A DNA stretch of 64,000 bases from a virus: IMG/VR virus record IMGVR_UViG_3300025141_015556. The stretch is one strand, 5' to 3'. The stretch's first letter is position 1. Each line of letters opens with the position of its first letter. Below the pieces are notes generated by a model. It saw nothing but the letters and a program-made list of their open reading frames with translations. It was not told where the DNA came from and did no database searches. This document shows positions 3,001-58,575 of the stretch, piece after piece. Position numbers and translations under genes: made by a program.

Positions 3001-6000
3001 GTTGAATGAAGACTAAGTAGCGTTCTAAGCCCTCTCCAGTGGTTCCCTTGATCTTGTGCCTCCATGGCGGTCCATGTTTCCTCTGAACCGCTAGTCATAC
3101 TAAATCCAATTAATCCTCTAACAGATAGATTTCTATAATTCAAGTTGTTATAGACGCTAAATTCTTCATGAGGCGGATCCAAATATCCCCTTGATTGTAC
3201 TTCAGGCGCCGCGGGCGATATAAATCTATTAACTATGATCGTTTTATTAGAATCGCTTCCCGTTCTTTCCGGTAGTTCATAATTTAAAGCACCACTGACA
3301 TTCGATGCAGCAACCCTGCCGCTGGTGCCCGCTTCAATAAGATTATTTCCTGTAAGAGGGAATCTGCCCCTTGTGGCCGTTGTTTCAGGGTTGATGGCAA
3401 AATCAAATGATTGATCCTGCCAAAATGGATCGTTTGAAGTTCTTCCGCAAGATTGTATAATTTCATAATTATGTGTATAGTTGCCTAAAACACTAGAACC
3501 GGTAGTGGATTGAATATTTTTAATATTAACCGGCCTCTTTGCCATCACTTCTCGATATCTATTTCCTTTCGGGCGGTCATACCTATATGGCGGCCTGTTT
3601 GGCTGAAGATCGCCACGTCGGGTGGTTGTGTCAATATCATCGACTTCAGGATATCGAGGGCCCACAATGCCCAAAGCGCCAGTCGTCGTCCAATCCGGTC
3701 TGGGACGCAGATCGAAATCAATGCCACAGAGAATTTTAAACCCTTCTGGCCTATCATCAGGAGAATCTAAATTATTGGGCCCACTTTTATCTGAATCATA
3801 TTTGTTTAATTCAACGTGCCTGTATTCCCTACCGCCTACCCAATGAGAAGTGAAGGGACTTTGTATCGGGGCTTCATAAAATTCTCCATATGTATCGCTA
3901 TGTAAATTGGTGACCATAACGCCTGAAGCAAAATTGTGAGCAATCTCGTGGTTATAACCGGTTTCCACAGACGAGCTATATAAACTAAATGGAGCAATAT
4001 TATTACCATCTGCGGTCAAATAATCATCATCTCCGGGTCGATTAATTTTTGCGTTCAGCTTAAACCCTAGACGCTGTTTCCTGTCCGGGTATACTACGTC
4101 AAGGGTCGGACGGAGTTGCTCGACTTCATCACCAAACGCCAACGCTATATTAGCAGGAATGTTGAAGCTCGGGTCAAGATCCATCAACGGGCCATCCGGG
4201 TGAGTTACAGAAAAAATAATATCTTTTCTTTTGCTCGTGTGATAATTCACTCCATGAATAACTGGCATTTCAGAAATAGAAAGCCTAAAAATGCTAGTTT
4301 GTTCTCGCCTGAAGCCGCCGGAAACTGCCGGGTACACGCCTTCGTCTGTACTGTTTCGCAGGATCTCTCGATATTTGTTAATTGTTGTTACGCCACCAAA
4401 ACATGTATCAGTCCTTATTGCACTGTCTTTCCACCAATCGTAGTTTGCTTTTTGCAAATCGGTGCAATCAACACTACTTACAGATTTGCCTAATTCGTCA
4501 GCTATTTCTTCCGCGACAGGCGCATGTTTAAAAAGCCACCCGCCCATGCGATCCTGGTCTGTCGGTATTATTCTGCCGGTTGGGGCCGCGGCATCGGCCA
4601 TCGCGGCACCCCCAGCGGCGGGCGCTAGCGTCAATGGCAACCATGCCTGAGCCATGCCTGCCGCAAGAGGATCTGGATCTTTAAAATCAGACATGGGGGC
4701 TTTGAATTGATATTTGTTTCTTTCTAAAACATGGCTTTCAATCATTGTATGAACTGATTCCGCCACATCTGCAGACGCCGGAACTAGTTGCTGCAGCATA
4801 ATTGATAAAGAACTATCGAACCATTTATAAAACTCATAGAACTTATCAAAATCGATTGTGTCGTTCTGGACACGTTCAAAAAACTTTTGGCGTGCGTGCG
4901 CCATCAATTTATAATCTTGTCGACGTTTATTGACCGGCTGACCAATTAAATTATGAATATCATGAATTGTGGCAAAATAATTCATTATTTCTTCTGAGAT
5001 ACTTTGATACAAGCTTTTTTCAAACGCGAAAGAATAATTTACTGGTCGAGTGCCCCTTATAAAAATATCTCTTTCGGTCCCGTCATAAACCGTAATCATA
5101 TCTTCTGATTGTAGGCTCTCCGGTAAATTTTGTCTAGAAATGCTAATGAATTCTTTATCTATGGCTTTTGTATCATCGGCAGCAAAACCATATCCTAGGC
5201 CCGGGTGCTTCCTGTTCAATATTGGGCCAAGCCAACCAAATTTGCTTGAACCAGGGCTCAGATCTGTACCCAGATTTGGGGCTCCATACATGTCGGTGGC
5301 CAGTGAGGGCTCGCCACCAACATAAGAACCAGAAGAAGCATCAACTACGGTAAATTCGCCATCGGCGTTGGAGCCGGTATTTTGATTAAAATCCCAATTT
5401 AATATTAAAGTATCTTGGGATAGAACCTCGCCAAAAGATGCAGACGGCAAGAATGGAAAAGCATTTTCATTTGTTCTATAGGTTCCGAAATCAAGAATAT
5501 TTTTAGCATGCGCTCTTTGGGCCTTTTCATTTATATCATCGAGCCATACTCTTAGCGATCCCACCTTTACATCAGAATTGTGTATCAGACTGCCAGTAAA
5601 ATTATTTCTATGAGCTCCAACAAAAAATCTTCGGGAGCCGGTTAAAAAGAGGGCGCCCGATAGGGGTGCTTGGGGTATCACCGCCGCGAGGCGGCTTGCG
5701 GCGGCCATATCATAAGCGTTCCCGCTAACAGAAAACTCATTTACAATGACGCCGCCTTCCATATTAATGCCGCGGAATTCTACAATGTAGTCATTTCCTT
5801 TGGTTCCGTTGGTAAAGCCGAGGGCGCCAGTTACAAGACCAACATAAGGATATTTTTCAGGCCGAACTCTTACAACGAAATTCCAATTACTATTATCGTA
5901 TACATCTGTAAACAATGAACTTGTTAATTCATTAACTTCCGTGGTCTCGTTTAGAGGAAGAAATGAAAGGCCATCGGCGGCGGTTCCAGATCTGATTAAT

Positions 6001-53990: not shown

Positions 53991-54209
53991 TTAATATTCT
54001 TCAAATTTATTACTAGTATGAATCACCATAGTTCTTAGTCCTTCATAGGTTGGCGGAATTGATTTTCTGAGTGTCGAGGAATCGTGAGTAGAGCTTATAT
54101 AAATATAAAGCGCCACTCCTAGCGTTCCACGTTTAATCTCATAATAGTGATCGGGGCCGAATTCTAAAGCAGCTTGCAAGATGATATCATCTTTTTGTAT
54201 TTCTGTCAT
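53991..54209 (-). CDS. Hypothetical protein
   Basis: ATG 54209 just downstream of the tRNA CCA; the track GTG start lies inside the tRNA. Confidence 0.55.
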   Translation of the reverse strand: MTEIQKDDIILQAALEFGPDHYYEIKRGTLGVALYIYISSTHDSSTLRKSIPPTYEGLRTMVIHTSNKFEEY

Positions 54210-54215
54210 ATATTC

Positions 54216-54292
54216 TGGCACACTCGGCAGGATTCGAACCTGCGGCCTGCGGATTAGAAGTCCGCTGCTCTATCCGACTGAGCTACGAGTGC
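54216..54292 (-). tRNA. tRNA-Arg(UCU), CCA encoded
   Basis: GCACTCGTAGCTCAGTCGGATAGAGCAGCGGACTTCTAATCCGCAGGCCGCAGGTTCGAATCCTGCCGAGTGTGCCA; full cloverleaf, anticodon TCT, Arg identity base A20. Confidence 0.97.
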
Positions 54293-54811
54293 TTGTTTCC
54301 TTTCGTATTCTGATACCGCTTCATAAAGCAATATATTTGCCGCCTGAGAAGTGTTTAAACAATATCCCACACCGGGCATATCTATACATACTACATCACA
54401 TTTTTGAATTATTTCAGCAGGAACTCCAGCTTGTTCGTTGCCCACAACCAAACACACACCGCGAGAGAAATCGAAATCATAAGAGCCCAATGATCGAGCC
54501 CCTTCCGCCAATTCAGCAACCACAACTTGAATGCCTGCAACTTCCATTTGCATAAGGAATTCGCGCGGGTTTTTAAATCTTTCAATCTCGACATAGTCTA
54601 TCAGGCTTCCAGACGAAGCTTTTATGCTACTCCGCTCAGGAATGTGTCCAATAACATAAAGCCGTTCTGCACCAAAGCAAGCAGCACTCCTAATGAGATA
54701 CCCAAGATTATCATCCACGCGGAAATTGATAGCACAGAGGCTAATCGGATACCTCTTGGAAGTTTTAAGTTTTTTATCATAACGTTGTCTTCTAGTTTCC
54801 TTTCGAACCAT
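54254..54811 (-). CDS. SpoU/TrmH-family (SPOUT) RNA 2'-O-methyltransferase; 3' end overlaps the tRNA
   Basis: NLGYLIRSAACFG, LVVGNEQAG, IDMPG...CLNTSQAANILLYE. Confidence 0.88.
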   Translation of the reverse strand: MVRKETRRQRYDKKLKTSKRYPISLCAINFRVDDNLGYLIRSAACFGAERLYVIGHIPERSSIKASSGSLIDYVEIERFKNPREFLMQMEVAGIQVVVAELAEGARSLGSYDFDFSRGVCLVVGNEQAGVPAEIIQKCDVVCIDMPGVGYCLNTSQAANILLYEAVSEYERKQALVAQSDRAADF

Positions 54812-54817
54812 ATTAAC

Positions 54818-54846
54818 AGTATACCTTATATGGTTTAGTTTGTCAA
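54818..54846 (-). promoter_or_regulatory. Near-consensus sigma70 promoter for the SpoU-tRNA unit, probably leaderless
   Basis: TTGACA (54846-54841), 17 bp, TATACT (54823-54818), then 6 nt to the ATG. Confidence 0.8.
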
Positions 54847-54848
54847 AT

Positions 54849-54875
54849 AAAAAAGCCGCCCCGGAGGGCGGCTTT
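54849..54875 (-). terminator. Rho-independent terminator
   Basis: Minus strand AAAGCCGCCC-TCCG-GGGCGGCTTT followed by further Ts (C-UCCG-G tetraloop), 20 nt after the stop at 54895. Confidence 0.9.
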
Positions 54876-54894
54876 CAATTAATATGGTTTAAAT

Positions 54895-55344
54895 TTATAT
54901 GATGTTGGCAGCAGAAGCAATCATGTGCCAGTGGCCATCATTGGTCGTATCGGAATGTGCTCTATAAACAAAGATTGCACCACCGTTATTACCGGCCTTC
55001 AGCGTAGTGTCGCCATCGGCAATACCCCAAATTGGGGCGCCCACTACAGTCCCAGGAGTGAGGGTTGTGGATTTGAAGGTCAGAGCCTGGCCCACTGAGC
55101 CTGTCTGACAAACAAATAAAACTTGGCCATCGCGACCACCGTTAAAGCCATTAATATTACATGCCGCAACCGAAGCCGAGACCCACAATACACTAGCATT
55201 AGTGACGTCTGGTTGGAAAGCGTTGACCGTGGTGCTGGATGTCAGTGCACCGGCAATTGCCAGAGACCCGCTTAAAGTAACCTTTTGATCCCCGATAAAG
55301 ATATCATTCATTTTTCTTAATACATTAACTGCTCTTTTGCTCAT
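54895..55344 (-). CDS. Putative small virion structural/decoration protein
   Basis: Beta-rich, S/T/G/A-rich 149 aa with four [ST][GAS]S motifs; CTATATA motif upstream and strong terminator downstream. Confidence 0.5.
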   Translation of the reverse strand: MSKRAVNVLRKMNDIFIGDQKVTLSGSLAIAGALTSSTTVNAFQPDVTNASVLWVSASVAACNINGFNGGRDGQVLFVCQTGSVGQALTFKSTTLTPGTVVGAPIWGIADGDTTLKAGNNGGAIFVYRAHSDTTNDGHWHMIASAANII

Positions 55345-57151: not shown

Positions 57152-57700
57152 TTATGGTTTTTTCAGACCCTCGTCGTTCCAGCCGCCATAAATAAGCTTT
57201 TCGTTCATAAGGTGACCGGTTTTTTCAGTATGCATCCATCCCAATGCGTGTCCTATCTCGTGTTCCAGAACGCGCTTCCTAACCATAGGCTTTAAATATA
57301 TTTTTGCCCAACTAATTTCTTGTGAGTCATTATCAACATAAAAATGCGTTATTGCCAGATTATCGCCCGGCTCGAATGTTTCTTGTGTTACCAAATTAAT
57401 AGTAATATATCCTACCGGATCAGGGTCCTGGCAAACCTTACGTGCACGGTCGCCTCGTATATAGATGCTGTGATAAAACACATATCCGCGTTCACTCCAC
57501 CAGCCTAGGGCTTTTTTAACATCGTCTTTTTTGACAGGAGCATTGTCGCACAACACAACCGTCGGAGTTCTTTCCCAATGGCCAATCTGGGCTAAGTCCT
57601 TTTTGGATATTTTAATAACATCCAAGCCCTCTATCACGGGATTGGTAGCAAAACCATTGCCAGGTATTAACAATAATAATATTAAAAATAGTTTTCTCAT
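57152..57700 (-). CDS. Secreted matrixin-like metalloprotease, paralogue 2
   Basis: Signal peptide; HEIGHALGWMH; HLMNE. Confidence 0.85.
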   Translation of the reverse strand: MRKLFLILLLLIPGNGFATNPVIEGLDVIKISKKDLAQIGHWERTPTVVLCDNAPVKKDDVKKALGWWSERGYVFYHSIYIRGDRARKVCQDPDPVGYITINLVTQETFEPGDNLAITHFYVDNDSQEISWAKIYLKPMVRKRVLEHEIGHALGWMHTEKTGHLMNEKLIYGGWNDEGLKKP

Positions 57701-58233
57701 CTTACCAATACGTCATCGCCCCAGCCTGCATAAATATGGTACGTGTGCATCAGATGACCCTCAATATTTAGGTGTCCGAACCCAAGAGCGTGTCCTAGCT
57801 CATGTTCGACGATGCCGCGTTCATCGACAGTCTCCGCCTTAAAAAACACCTTGGCGTAGTACATGTGTATATAATCATCTTCCAAGAGGTAGCGTGTAAC
57901 AGCCATATCAATTTCTTTCCGTACGGCTTCCGGCACAAGCTTTGCAACAACGATGTAGCCCCCAGGAAAAGACTTCCAGGCGTTCTTGCAGATCGTCCGG
58001 GCTGTGGGGTCTTCTGACAAAGGAACATATTCGAACAGGTGTCCTCGACTTTTCCACCAAGAAAGGGCGCCCAGCAGACGCTCTTCACTTACGGGTGCGT
58101 CGTCGCACAAAATCACCTTGGGGGGACTACGCCATGTTCCAAAGATTAAATCGCCTTCCGTTTCGGGATCGGTCGCAAAAGCGTTGCCGGCGAACAGCAA
58201 CGCTATCATTAACAATGATATTACTCTTTTCAT
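57697..58233 (-). CDS. Secreted matrixin-like metalloprotease, paralogue 3
   Basis: Likely start MKRVISLL (58233) giving a signal peptide ending AFA; HELGHALGFGH; HLMHT. Confidence 0.85.
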   Translation of the reverse strand: MKRVISLLMIALLFAGNAFATDPETEGDLIFGTWRSPPKVILCDDAPVSEERLLGALSWWKSRGHLFEYVPLSEDPTARTICKNAWKSFPGGYIVVAKLVPEAVRKEIDMAVTRYLLEDDYIHMYYAKVFFKAETVDERGIVEHELGHALGFGHLNIEGHLMHTYHIYAGWGDDVLVR

Positions 58234-58252: not shown

Positions 58253-58575
58253 TGGTGGAGGTGGCGGGAATCGAACCCGCTTCCAAAGCATTCGTCTTTC
58301 AAGTCATTCACAAGCATAGTTATATTTTAATCTAAATACACAAAATAGTCAAGCTTTTTATGCGCAAAACTTTGACAAAAGCGCTTATTTTCTCAATACT
58401 CTTCTTGGACACTTGGTATGAAGAGCAACCAAGGATTAAGCAGCTAAGGCTAAATCGTAATCTGCGTTATTGGCAGTTATATTTTTTTCTGTAAAGTTTT
58501 GTGTGATTTCCAGAACTTGCACAGCTTGCACTCTTATAGAGACTCTTTTACCCTGTCGAGACCTTAAACACCCCC
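58253..58575 (-). ncRNA. ssrA: tmRNA (one-piece, 323 nt), tag peptide (A)ANNADYDLALAA
   Basis: 5' GGGGGTG pairs with 3' CACCTCC-A-CCA with a G3.U alanine determinant; T-arm GCGGGTTCGATTCCCGC; resume context ATAACT-GCC; tag ORF 58474-58436. Confidence 0.95.

Follow-up and report, generated by a model that had tools for sequence, protein, structure and literature searches.

On the minus strand of the window, that is, of the whole stretch of 64,000 nucleotides analyzed here (IMG/VR virus record IMGVR_UViG_3300025141_015556), an open reading frame (ORF) of 185 amino acids at 54254..54811 (-) encodes a SpoU/TrmH-like SPOUT RNA methyltransferase, as judged from the ORF call and a Pfam match. This gene, called SpoU below, runs into a tRNA-Arg(UCU) gene with an encoded CCA at 54216..54292 (-), which is recognized by ARAGORN (anticodon tct) and scores 73.8 bits in Rfam against a cut-off of 29. 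According to the ORF and ARAGORN coordinates, the two overlap by 39 nt (54254..54292 (-)), and the final 12 sense codons and the stop of SpoU are tRNA sequence. The first in-frame stop is the TAA at 54256..54254, which consists of the third anticodon base and the next two bases of the loop (tRNA bases 37-39 by sequence index). The tRNA-encoded part of the protein comprises residues 174-185 (ALVAQSDRAADF); in translation, the C-terminus reads ...ERKQALVAQSDRAADF or, over a longer stretch, ...YERKQALVAQSDRAADF. A first-pass annotation of this DNA had proposed that the SpoU frame has no stop ahead of the tRNA and that it closes in the anticodon loop, and both statements are borne out by the ORF together with the tRNA found by ARAGORN and Rfam. 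Here, then, a domain-bearing gene has its stop inside a valid, co-oriented tRNA.

The tRNA itself is probably functional. Across eight distinct homologues, all 168 pair cells hold standard pairs and three pairs are changed on both sides, which, together with the score, indicates that the gene evolves as a tRNA. The MFE fold of the SpoU-tRNA junction contains no cloverleaf, and its stability is like that of shuffled sequences (z = -0.89). This fold adds no information, since the tRNA is already secured by the covariance model and by the compensatory changes.

Upstream of SpoU, an intrinsic-terminator-like hairpin of 11 pairs (7 of them G-C), followed by a T run, lies at 54851..54876 (-) and ends the upstream gene (54895..55344). 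Next comes a sigma-70-type promoter-like site, TTGACA-17-TATACT, at 54818..54846 (-), which agrees with the consensus at 11 of 12 positions in a consensus scan and would, on that basis, function as a promoter. The earlier claim that the unit has its own near-consensus promoter straight after a strong terminator is therefore in agreement with the sequence scan, and the same pairing is present in three related loci. The -10 hexamer of this site, TATACT, ends exactly 6 nt ahead of the ATG (window 54811-54846 (-)); therefore, transcription may start at or beside the A of the ATG, and the SpoU mRNA is possibly leaderless. The spacing is the same before SpoU in the related loci L081 (about 4470-4503), L082 (about 875-907), and L084 (about 4470-4503), each of which has an equivalent terminator-like hairpin directly ahead of the promoter. 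Four other overlap loci are devoid of the terminator/promoter module, and SpoU abuts the upstream ORF in them.

Between 54811 and 54216, the consensus scan found no terminator-like sites. The promoter-like sites that it found inside the SpoU ORF are all weak (9/12), including one at 54359..54330; the possibility that they form an internal promoter for the tRNA was considered and rejected, as these sites are forced by the coding sequence and are not conserved. Beyond the tRNA, the next ORF (72 aa, MTEIQKDDIIL...; 53991..54209 (-)) has its ATG 6 nt past the CCA. Its homologues begin 4 nt after the CCA in L081/L082, L086, and L099-L102, while in L084 an unlike ORF follows the tRNA, with its start 8 nt past the CCA.

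The window also carries a one-piece phage tmRNA at 58253..58575 (-), recognized by ARAGORN and by Rfam (118.6 bits). Its tag, ANNADYDLALAA, ends in LAA and is thus taken here to resemble known degradation tags. The same tag is found in the tmRNA of the related locus L001, and it was found in no cellular genome among the 185,579 species searched; therefore, the host cannot be deduced from the tag. SmpB was not found on five related phage contigs, and the SmpB of the host would therefore be needed. Among cultured phages, a blastn search with the tmRNA gave only short matches to its 3′ end, in Stenotrophomonas, Xanthomonas, and Alcaligenes phages, and in several of the matched Stenotrophomonas phage records a tmRNA is annotated where the match falls. 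In general, 2.3% of phage genomes carry a tmRNA, with a role that is so far speculative (PMC9004378). About 19 nt past the 3′ end of the tmRNA in the window begins an ORF (57697-58233 (-)) with a signal-peptide-like start (MKRVISLLMIALLF...) and a HELGHALGFGH zinc-protease motif; a longer listed version of it (start 58317) merely reads through the 3′ part of the tmRNA.

The SpoU family

Residues 25-163 of SpoU match the Pfam family SpoU_methylase (PF00588) with 92.8 bits (gathering score, 29.7) and cover profile positions 4-142 of 142, which makes the protein a member of this family. In 30 family members, N35, G37, R41, V122-V123-G124-N125-E126, L152-N153-T154, and E164 are invariant. SPOUT motifs 1-3 are all present in SpoU, including the Asn and Arg of motif 1 and the Asn-Glu of motif 2; from what is known of TrmH, these conserved residues presumably have a catalytic role. 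The ATG at 54811 is taken as the start because the N-terminus is conserved across the family. A basic N-terminus, MxRxETRRQRYDKKLK, is shared by its members, residues 3-167 of SpoU align with residues 4-166 of the Thermus TrmH chain (1v2x), and Aquifex TrmH (1zjr) also aligns from the N-terminus. TrmH, a tRNA Gm18 2′-O-methyltransferase of the SPOUT class, is therefore like SpoU in its fold family and conserved motifs, but the solved TrmH chains have a longer C-terminal region that is absent from the SpoU family, in which the core ends at about residue 171-175.

The substrate of SpoU is a different matter. The TrmH model NF008295, membership in which would imply G18 specificity, gives 59.8 bits (cut-off, 227), and SpoU thus falls outside the TrmH equivalog, while the RlmB model TIGR00186 gives 60 bits (cut-off, 160). 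Since the two models tie and both scores are far under their cut-offs, no substrate can be assigned to SpoU.

At E <= 1e-10, the family comprises 551 clusters of 45-100% identity, mostly from marine metagenomes, and the contigs bearing its members are 45-395 kb long. The protein cluster of the window is found on three contigs. Among GenBank phages, the best relative has just 35% identity, so none is close, and DNA similar to the locus was found only at the tRNA. The C-terminal tails differ freely in both length and sequence, with total lengths of 171-195 aa in 120 proteins. Genes of this family frequently have tRNA neighbors, which vary in identity (Arg, Asn, Thr, Leu, Gly): a tRNA lies within 2 kb downstream in 41 of 99 loci and within 2 kb upstream in 18 of 74. 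These counts would suggest that SpoU genes adjoin tRNA genes beyond chance expectation. Such proximity may be regarded as compatible with a tRNA substrate, but it is no proof of one, and the idea that 2′-O-methylation by SpoU guards tRNAs against anticodon nucleases is speculation. A large and apparently unstudied family of SpoU-like phage methyltransferases beside phage tRNA genes points to phage-directed RNA modification. This family of over 500 clusters is a side result, and it is possibly of more use than the overlap itself.

Overlaps between genes and tRNAs in related phages

A scan of JGI metagenomes and IMG/VR yielded 160 SpoU loci. In eight of these (L081, L082, L084, L086, and L099-L102), a homologous tRNA-Arg(UCU) lies directly behind SpoU, and in all eight the junction and the frame are identical to those of the window, with no stop before the tRNA, at 69-85% SpoU identity. 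Conservation in relatives, which the first-pass annotation had named as a point to check, thus holds: a stop just before the tRNA is seen in none of the eight tRNA-carrying relatives, and the overlap is kept in every one. Two forms of the junction occur. In L081 and L082, whose SpoU is 85% identical to that of the window, the stop is also in the anticodon loop and the overlap is 39 nt long. In L084, L086, L099, L100, L101, and L102 (69-74% identity), a TAG at D-loop bases 16-18 ends the frame after an overlap of 18 nt. A single D-loop base separates the two variants, C versus A at position 17, and the tail accordingly extends 12 codons into the tRNA in the window, L081, and L082 versus 5 codons in most relatives. 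The last codons before the tRNA in the overlap loci are CAA, TAT, TCA, and CAG.

Protein sequences show related endings. P0071 ends in ALVAQ and P0084 in APVAQ, which is consistent with the two stop forms, and the P0003, P0071, and P0084 types are represented among the loci of the metagenome scan. P0002, known as a protein only, ends in ALVAQQDRATDF and corresponds to another D-loop variant, which lacks a stop at that place. Two other proteins, likewise seen without their DNA, have the tails ...STRSLVG* (P0021) and ...GTRSSVG* (P0090). These tails are as expected from a tRNA 5′ half (..ACTCGTAGCTCAGTTGGTTAG) translated in a third frame, in which the stop occupies tRNA bases 21-23, and they would be a second type of junction.

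The overlap in the window goes back to a common ancestor with at least eight sampled relatives. On the SpoU tree, which is poorly resolved, the overlap-bearing proteins are scattered, and the AU test does not reject a single clade for them (p = 0.132); therefore, no claim of repeated gain or loss is made. A scan of IMG/VR for the junction pattern gave zero matches.

In relatives without the tRNA, SpoU ends normally at residues 171-175, which is where the tRNA begins in the window. For instance, in L001 (70% identity, no tRNA), the stop falls at the position at which the tRNA of the window starts. The slot between SpoU and the conserved next ORF is occupied by the tRNA-Arg, by a spacer of 66-76 nt, by a 4-nt gene overlap, or by about 200-260 nt; this longest form holds a small ORF in the loci examined (L002, L013, L159). 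The spacers of 66-76 nt have no likeness to a tRNA. That the 76-nt spacer of L001 could be a decayed tRNA was considered and rejected, as Rfam returned nothing and, when aligned locally with the tRNA, the spacer did not outscore shuffled sequences. Relatives of 55-57% identity have the homologous tRNA-Arg farther downstream, 467-507 nt past SpoU, where a different ORF, of 88 aa, reaches 10 nt into it. In distant relatives with a tRNA-Asn, -Thr, or -Leu directly behind SpoU, the stop is 1, 9, or 10 nt before the tRNA.

Genes other than SpoU also end inside tRNAs. Among 96 distinct tRNA contexts in the related loci in which a clean ORF of 60 aa or more lies within 150 nt upstream, the stop of the upstream ORF lies inside the tRNA in 26 (27%), and in 28 further contexts the ORF ends 0-10 nt from the tRNA. 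In 16 of the 26 overlaps, the stop is a TAG formed by tRNA bases U8-A9-G10, with an overlap of 10 nt; examples are found in L009-L014, L084:5105-5320, L099:2273-2497, L123:1155-1394, L016:3236-3502, L033:2976-3248, and L052:1548-1964. The ORF families involved are unrelated and represent roughly nine or ten independent events. The same script applied to five unrelated tRNA-rich phages found 2 overlaps in 22 contexts (9%) and 8 more ORF ends at 0-10 nt, in what is a small comparison that ignores kinship.

Homologues of the downstream ORF of the window (MTQIQQDDIL...) themselves enter a tRNA-Thr in L099, L102, and L123. In Morganella phage MP1, a cultured T4-like phage (L166; KX078569.1 61500-68500), an ORF of 102 aa ends 26 nt inside a tRNA-Trp and one of 175 aa stops 3 nt inside a tRNA-Asn; therefore, overlaps of genes into tRNAs are not confined to the marine group.

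The tmRNA has a wider distribution than the SpoU overlap. Of the overlap loci, all 4 with enough flanking sequence have it upstream of SpoU, but so do 10 of the 13 non-overlap loci (70-79% identity), and two distant relatives carry it on their contigs. It is thus a trait of the whole phage group and is independent of the overlap.

Readings of the overlap

In what is probably an uncultured marine T4-like phage, a gene for a SpoU-family (TrmH-like) RNA 2′-O-methyltransferase is joined without a spacer or a stop codon to a working tRNA-Arg(UCU). A single transcript probably starts from one early sigma-70-type promoter, and on it a possibly leaderless SpoU would be followed by the tRNA and, if co-transcribed, by the next ORF. 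On the uncut transcript, ribosomes would go 12 codons into the tRNA and stop at the UAA of the anticodon loop, and the product would be the 185-aa protein with an unselected tail. Cleavage by host RNase P, which is expected between 54293 and 54292 from the position of the tRNA 5′ end, would take the stop away from the SpoU message. The cut message would end in ...AAA CAA, and its ribosomes would be rescued by tmRNA-SmpB, after which the protein would be tagged and the message degraded. Both the cutting of RNase P at the 5′ ends of tRNAs and rescue by tmRNA are established biology, and the earlier proposal that the RNase P cut strips SpoU of its stop is upheld as a consequence of them. The prediction of a stop-less SpoU mRNA, made from the sequence, is thus sound. 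As a ribosome that terminates inside the tRNA keeps it unfolded, translation of the tail and processing of the tRNA would be mutually exclusive at any moment.

As for why the overlap exists, we lean toward considering it a tolerated by-product of the way in which this phage group crowds genes very closely against tRNAs. This reading is favored because each of the three frames of a tRNA meets a stop codon in the first 10 to 39 bases; therefore, a gene pressed against a tRNA can lose its own stop while its protein is unharmed. Selection for the overlap appears, then, to be absent. Nevertheless, some observations count against packing. The overlap has been kept while the proteins diverged by about 30%, and no stop has arisen ahead of the tRNA, even though one could be created by a single-base change, for example from CAA to TAA. 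In addition, the frequency of overlaps, 27% here, compares with 9% in the control phages and about 0.2% in bacteria (PMC4131195).

The overlap could instead have been selected as a switch specific to SpoU, as the first-pass annotation suggested. Each transcript would then yield either intact methyltransferase or mature tRNA plus a tagged, short-lived enzyme, and the dose of the enzyme would be tied to its substrate. The retention of the overlap in all eight tRNA-carrying relatives would fit with such a device, as would the dedicated terminator and promoter before the unit in four loci, the tRNA genes near SpoU genes, and the LAA end of the tmRNA tag. However, both the position of the stop and the length of the tail vary (5 versus 12 codons), SpoU lacks a promoter of its own in four overlap loci, and the TrmH and RlmB models provide no substrate for the enzyme. 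Furthermore, the layout is not specific to SpoU, as unrelated ORFs enter tRNAs likewise (26 of 96 contexts), and relatives that have no tRNA, or whose stop lies just before another tRNA, are common. The proposed link to the tmRNA does not hold either, since 10 of the 13 non-overlap loci of 70-79% identity and the distant relatives carry one too. Thus, the overlap is probably not a device for regulating SpoU, and a switch of this kind must be considered unlikely.

Perhaps the function lies at the level of the group, with tRNAs acting as punctuation, as signals for processing within early polycistronic transcripts. Excision of a tRNA would leave the upstream message stop-less and the downstream one nearly leaderless, and tmRNA would deal with the stalled ribosomes. 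In accordance with this, the upstream stop lies inside 27% of the tRNAs preceded by an ORF and 0-10 nt away in 28 further contexts, downstream ATGs are found 4-8 nt past the CCA, and tmRNA occurs throughout the group, including in distant relatives. The higher frequency of overlaps, together with the group-wide tmRNA, therefore leaves room for a functional link across the group. Against this, the association amounts to a single phylogenetic event, and tmRNA and overlaps part company in other phages: Stenotrophomonas phage Moby, with a tmRNA and 23 tRNAs, has zero overlaps, XacN1 has a tmRNA but no clean overlap, and Morganella phage MP1 has overlaps but gave no match to the tmRNA of the window by blastn, a search of limited reach. 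The lack of SmpB in five related contigs also speaks against it. Such punctuation is consequently regarded as quite unlikely. The same low expectation applies to its most elaborate form, in which early transcripts would be punctuated throughout: the leaderless SpoU message, made from a strong promoter, would double as the 5′ leader of pre-tRNA-Arg, RNase P would end SpoU without a stop, 3′ trimming would leave the next gene nearly leaderless, and the group-wide tmRNA would both clear the ribosomes that stall and determine the dose of these proteins, among them an enzyme that possibly modifies the released tRNA.

It is very unlikely, in turn, that the overlap is of little consequence because mature tRNA comes mainly from other transcripts, made from an internal or later promoter, with most SpoU messages left intact or degraded in other ways. 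Weak promoter-like sites do exist in the 3′ end of SpoU (54359..54330, 9/12), and similar ones are seen in L084, L099, L101, and L102. These are poor matches, however; they coincide with the codons for the conserved motif CLNTSQAANILLYE, L081 and L086 lack them, and read-through transcripts would fold into a substrate for RNase P anyway. Finally, a sequencing or assembly error that removed the SpoU stop, or a decaying gene, is hardly credible, for although the stop in L001 (70% identity, no tRNA) lies where the tRNA of the window begins, the junction is common to independent samples (L081 and L082 from two other samples, plus six loci), the core motifs of SpoU are invariant, and its protein cluster occurs on three contigs.

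Under any of the readings in which RNase P does truncate such messages, phages rich in gene-into-tRNA overlaps would routinely make stop-less mRNAs. If true, this would be a concrete reason for phage-encoded tmRNAs, whose role has so far been guessed at (PMC9004378). The SpoU locus is a clean test case, as it combines a strong promoter, one gene, and one tRNA with natural 5-codon, 12-codon, and zero-overlap variants.

Comparison with known systems

The mRNA of arfA is cleaved by RNase III, which gives a non-stop message, and its product is destroyed when tmRNA is active. The proposal for SpoU is similar in that RNA processing takes away the stop and the fate of the protein hangs on trans-translation. 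There are differences, nevertheless. The truncated product of arfA is functional and the circuit senses the capacity of tmRNA, whereas nothing suggests that a truncated SpoU is the intended product, and the cleavage hairpin of arfA has no counterpart at the SpoU locus. In addition, an arfA-like circuit calls for a gene-specific layout with a conserved position and for a rescue system confined to the genomes with the overlap. Here, the layout is neither specific to the gene nor constant in position, and the tmRNA accompanies overlap and non-overlap loci alike (4/4 and 10/13, respectively).

In mitochondria, tRNAs punctuate transcripts, and stops are completed by polyadenylation. As at the SpoU locus, tRNAs lie there without spacers between coding regions, and their excision defines the ends of mRNAs. 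An incomplete stop of the mitochondrial type is not found at the junctions described here, since CAA, TAT, TCA, or CAG followed by A residues give no stop.

Close parallels are known from bacteria. Hudson, Lau and Williams (2014) described non-stop mRNAs that arise from the overlap of genes with tRNA or tmRNA genes in bacteria (PMC4131195). Among 115,660 RNA genes, their count of co-oriented upstream genes was 250, with examples such as smpB into ssrA in Carsonella and FtsW-family genes into tRNA-Ile in Helicobacter (PMC4131195). As with SpoU, a gene with a Pfam domain lies upstream and co-oriented, its stop is in a valid tRNA, and maturation is predicted to remove that stop; moreover, each case, SpoU included, is one evolutionary event common to related genomes (PMC4131195). 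Unlike the bacterial cases (PMC4131195), the SpoU overlap is in a phage, the gene encodes an RNA methyltransferase, and the genome has its own tmRNA. Overlaps are also far more common in this phage group (26/96) than in bacteria (250/115,660; PMC4131195), although the counting methods differ.

Among phages, a comparable arrangement is that of segB and tRNA-Arg in T4, for which Brok-Volchanskaya et al. (2008) suggested a cut during tRNA maturation that falls between the last sense codon and the stop and thereby lowers expression (PMC2330249). In both loci, an ORF of a T4-type phage sits directly before a tRNA-Arg, on one precursor transcript in T4 (PMC2330249) and probably also here. By contrast, segB encodes a homing endonuclease in a tRNA cluster and its stop abuts the end of the tRNA, while SpoU is a methyltransferase that enters a solitary tRNA to a depth of 12 codons (5 in most relatives); in both cases, loss of the stop is a prediction.

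Thus, the removal of a stop codon by tRNA processing is an idea already published for bacteria (PMC4131195) and for T4 segB (PMC2330249). What is new here is the instance, namely, a methyltransferase gene that extends 5 or 12 codons deep into the tRNA and has kept doing so over about 30% divergence. On present evidence, the SpoU locus is one more example of a described phenomenon, now in a phage and with a methyltransferase, and the main lesson is that tRNA genes allow tightly packed phage genes to lose their own stop codons.
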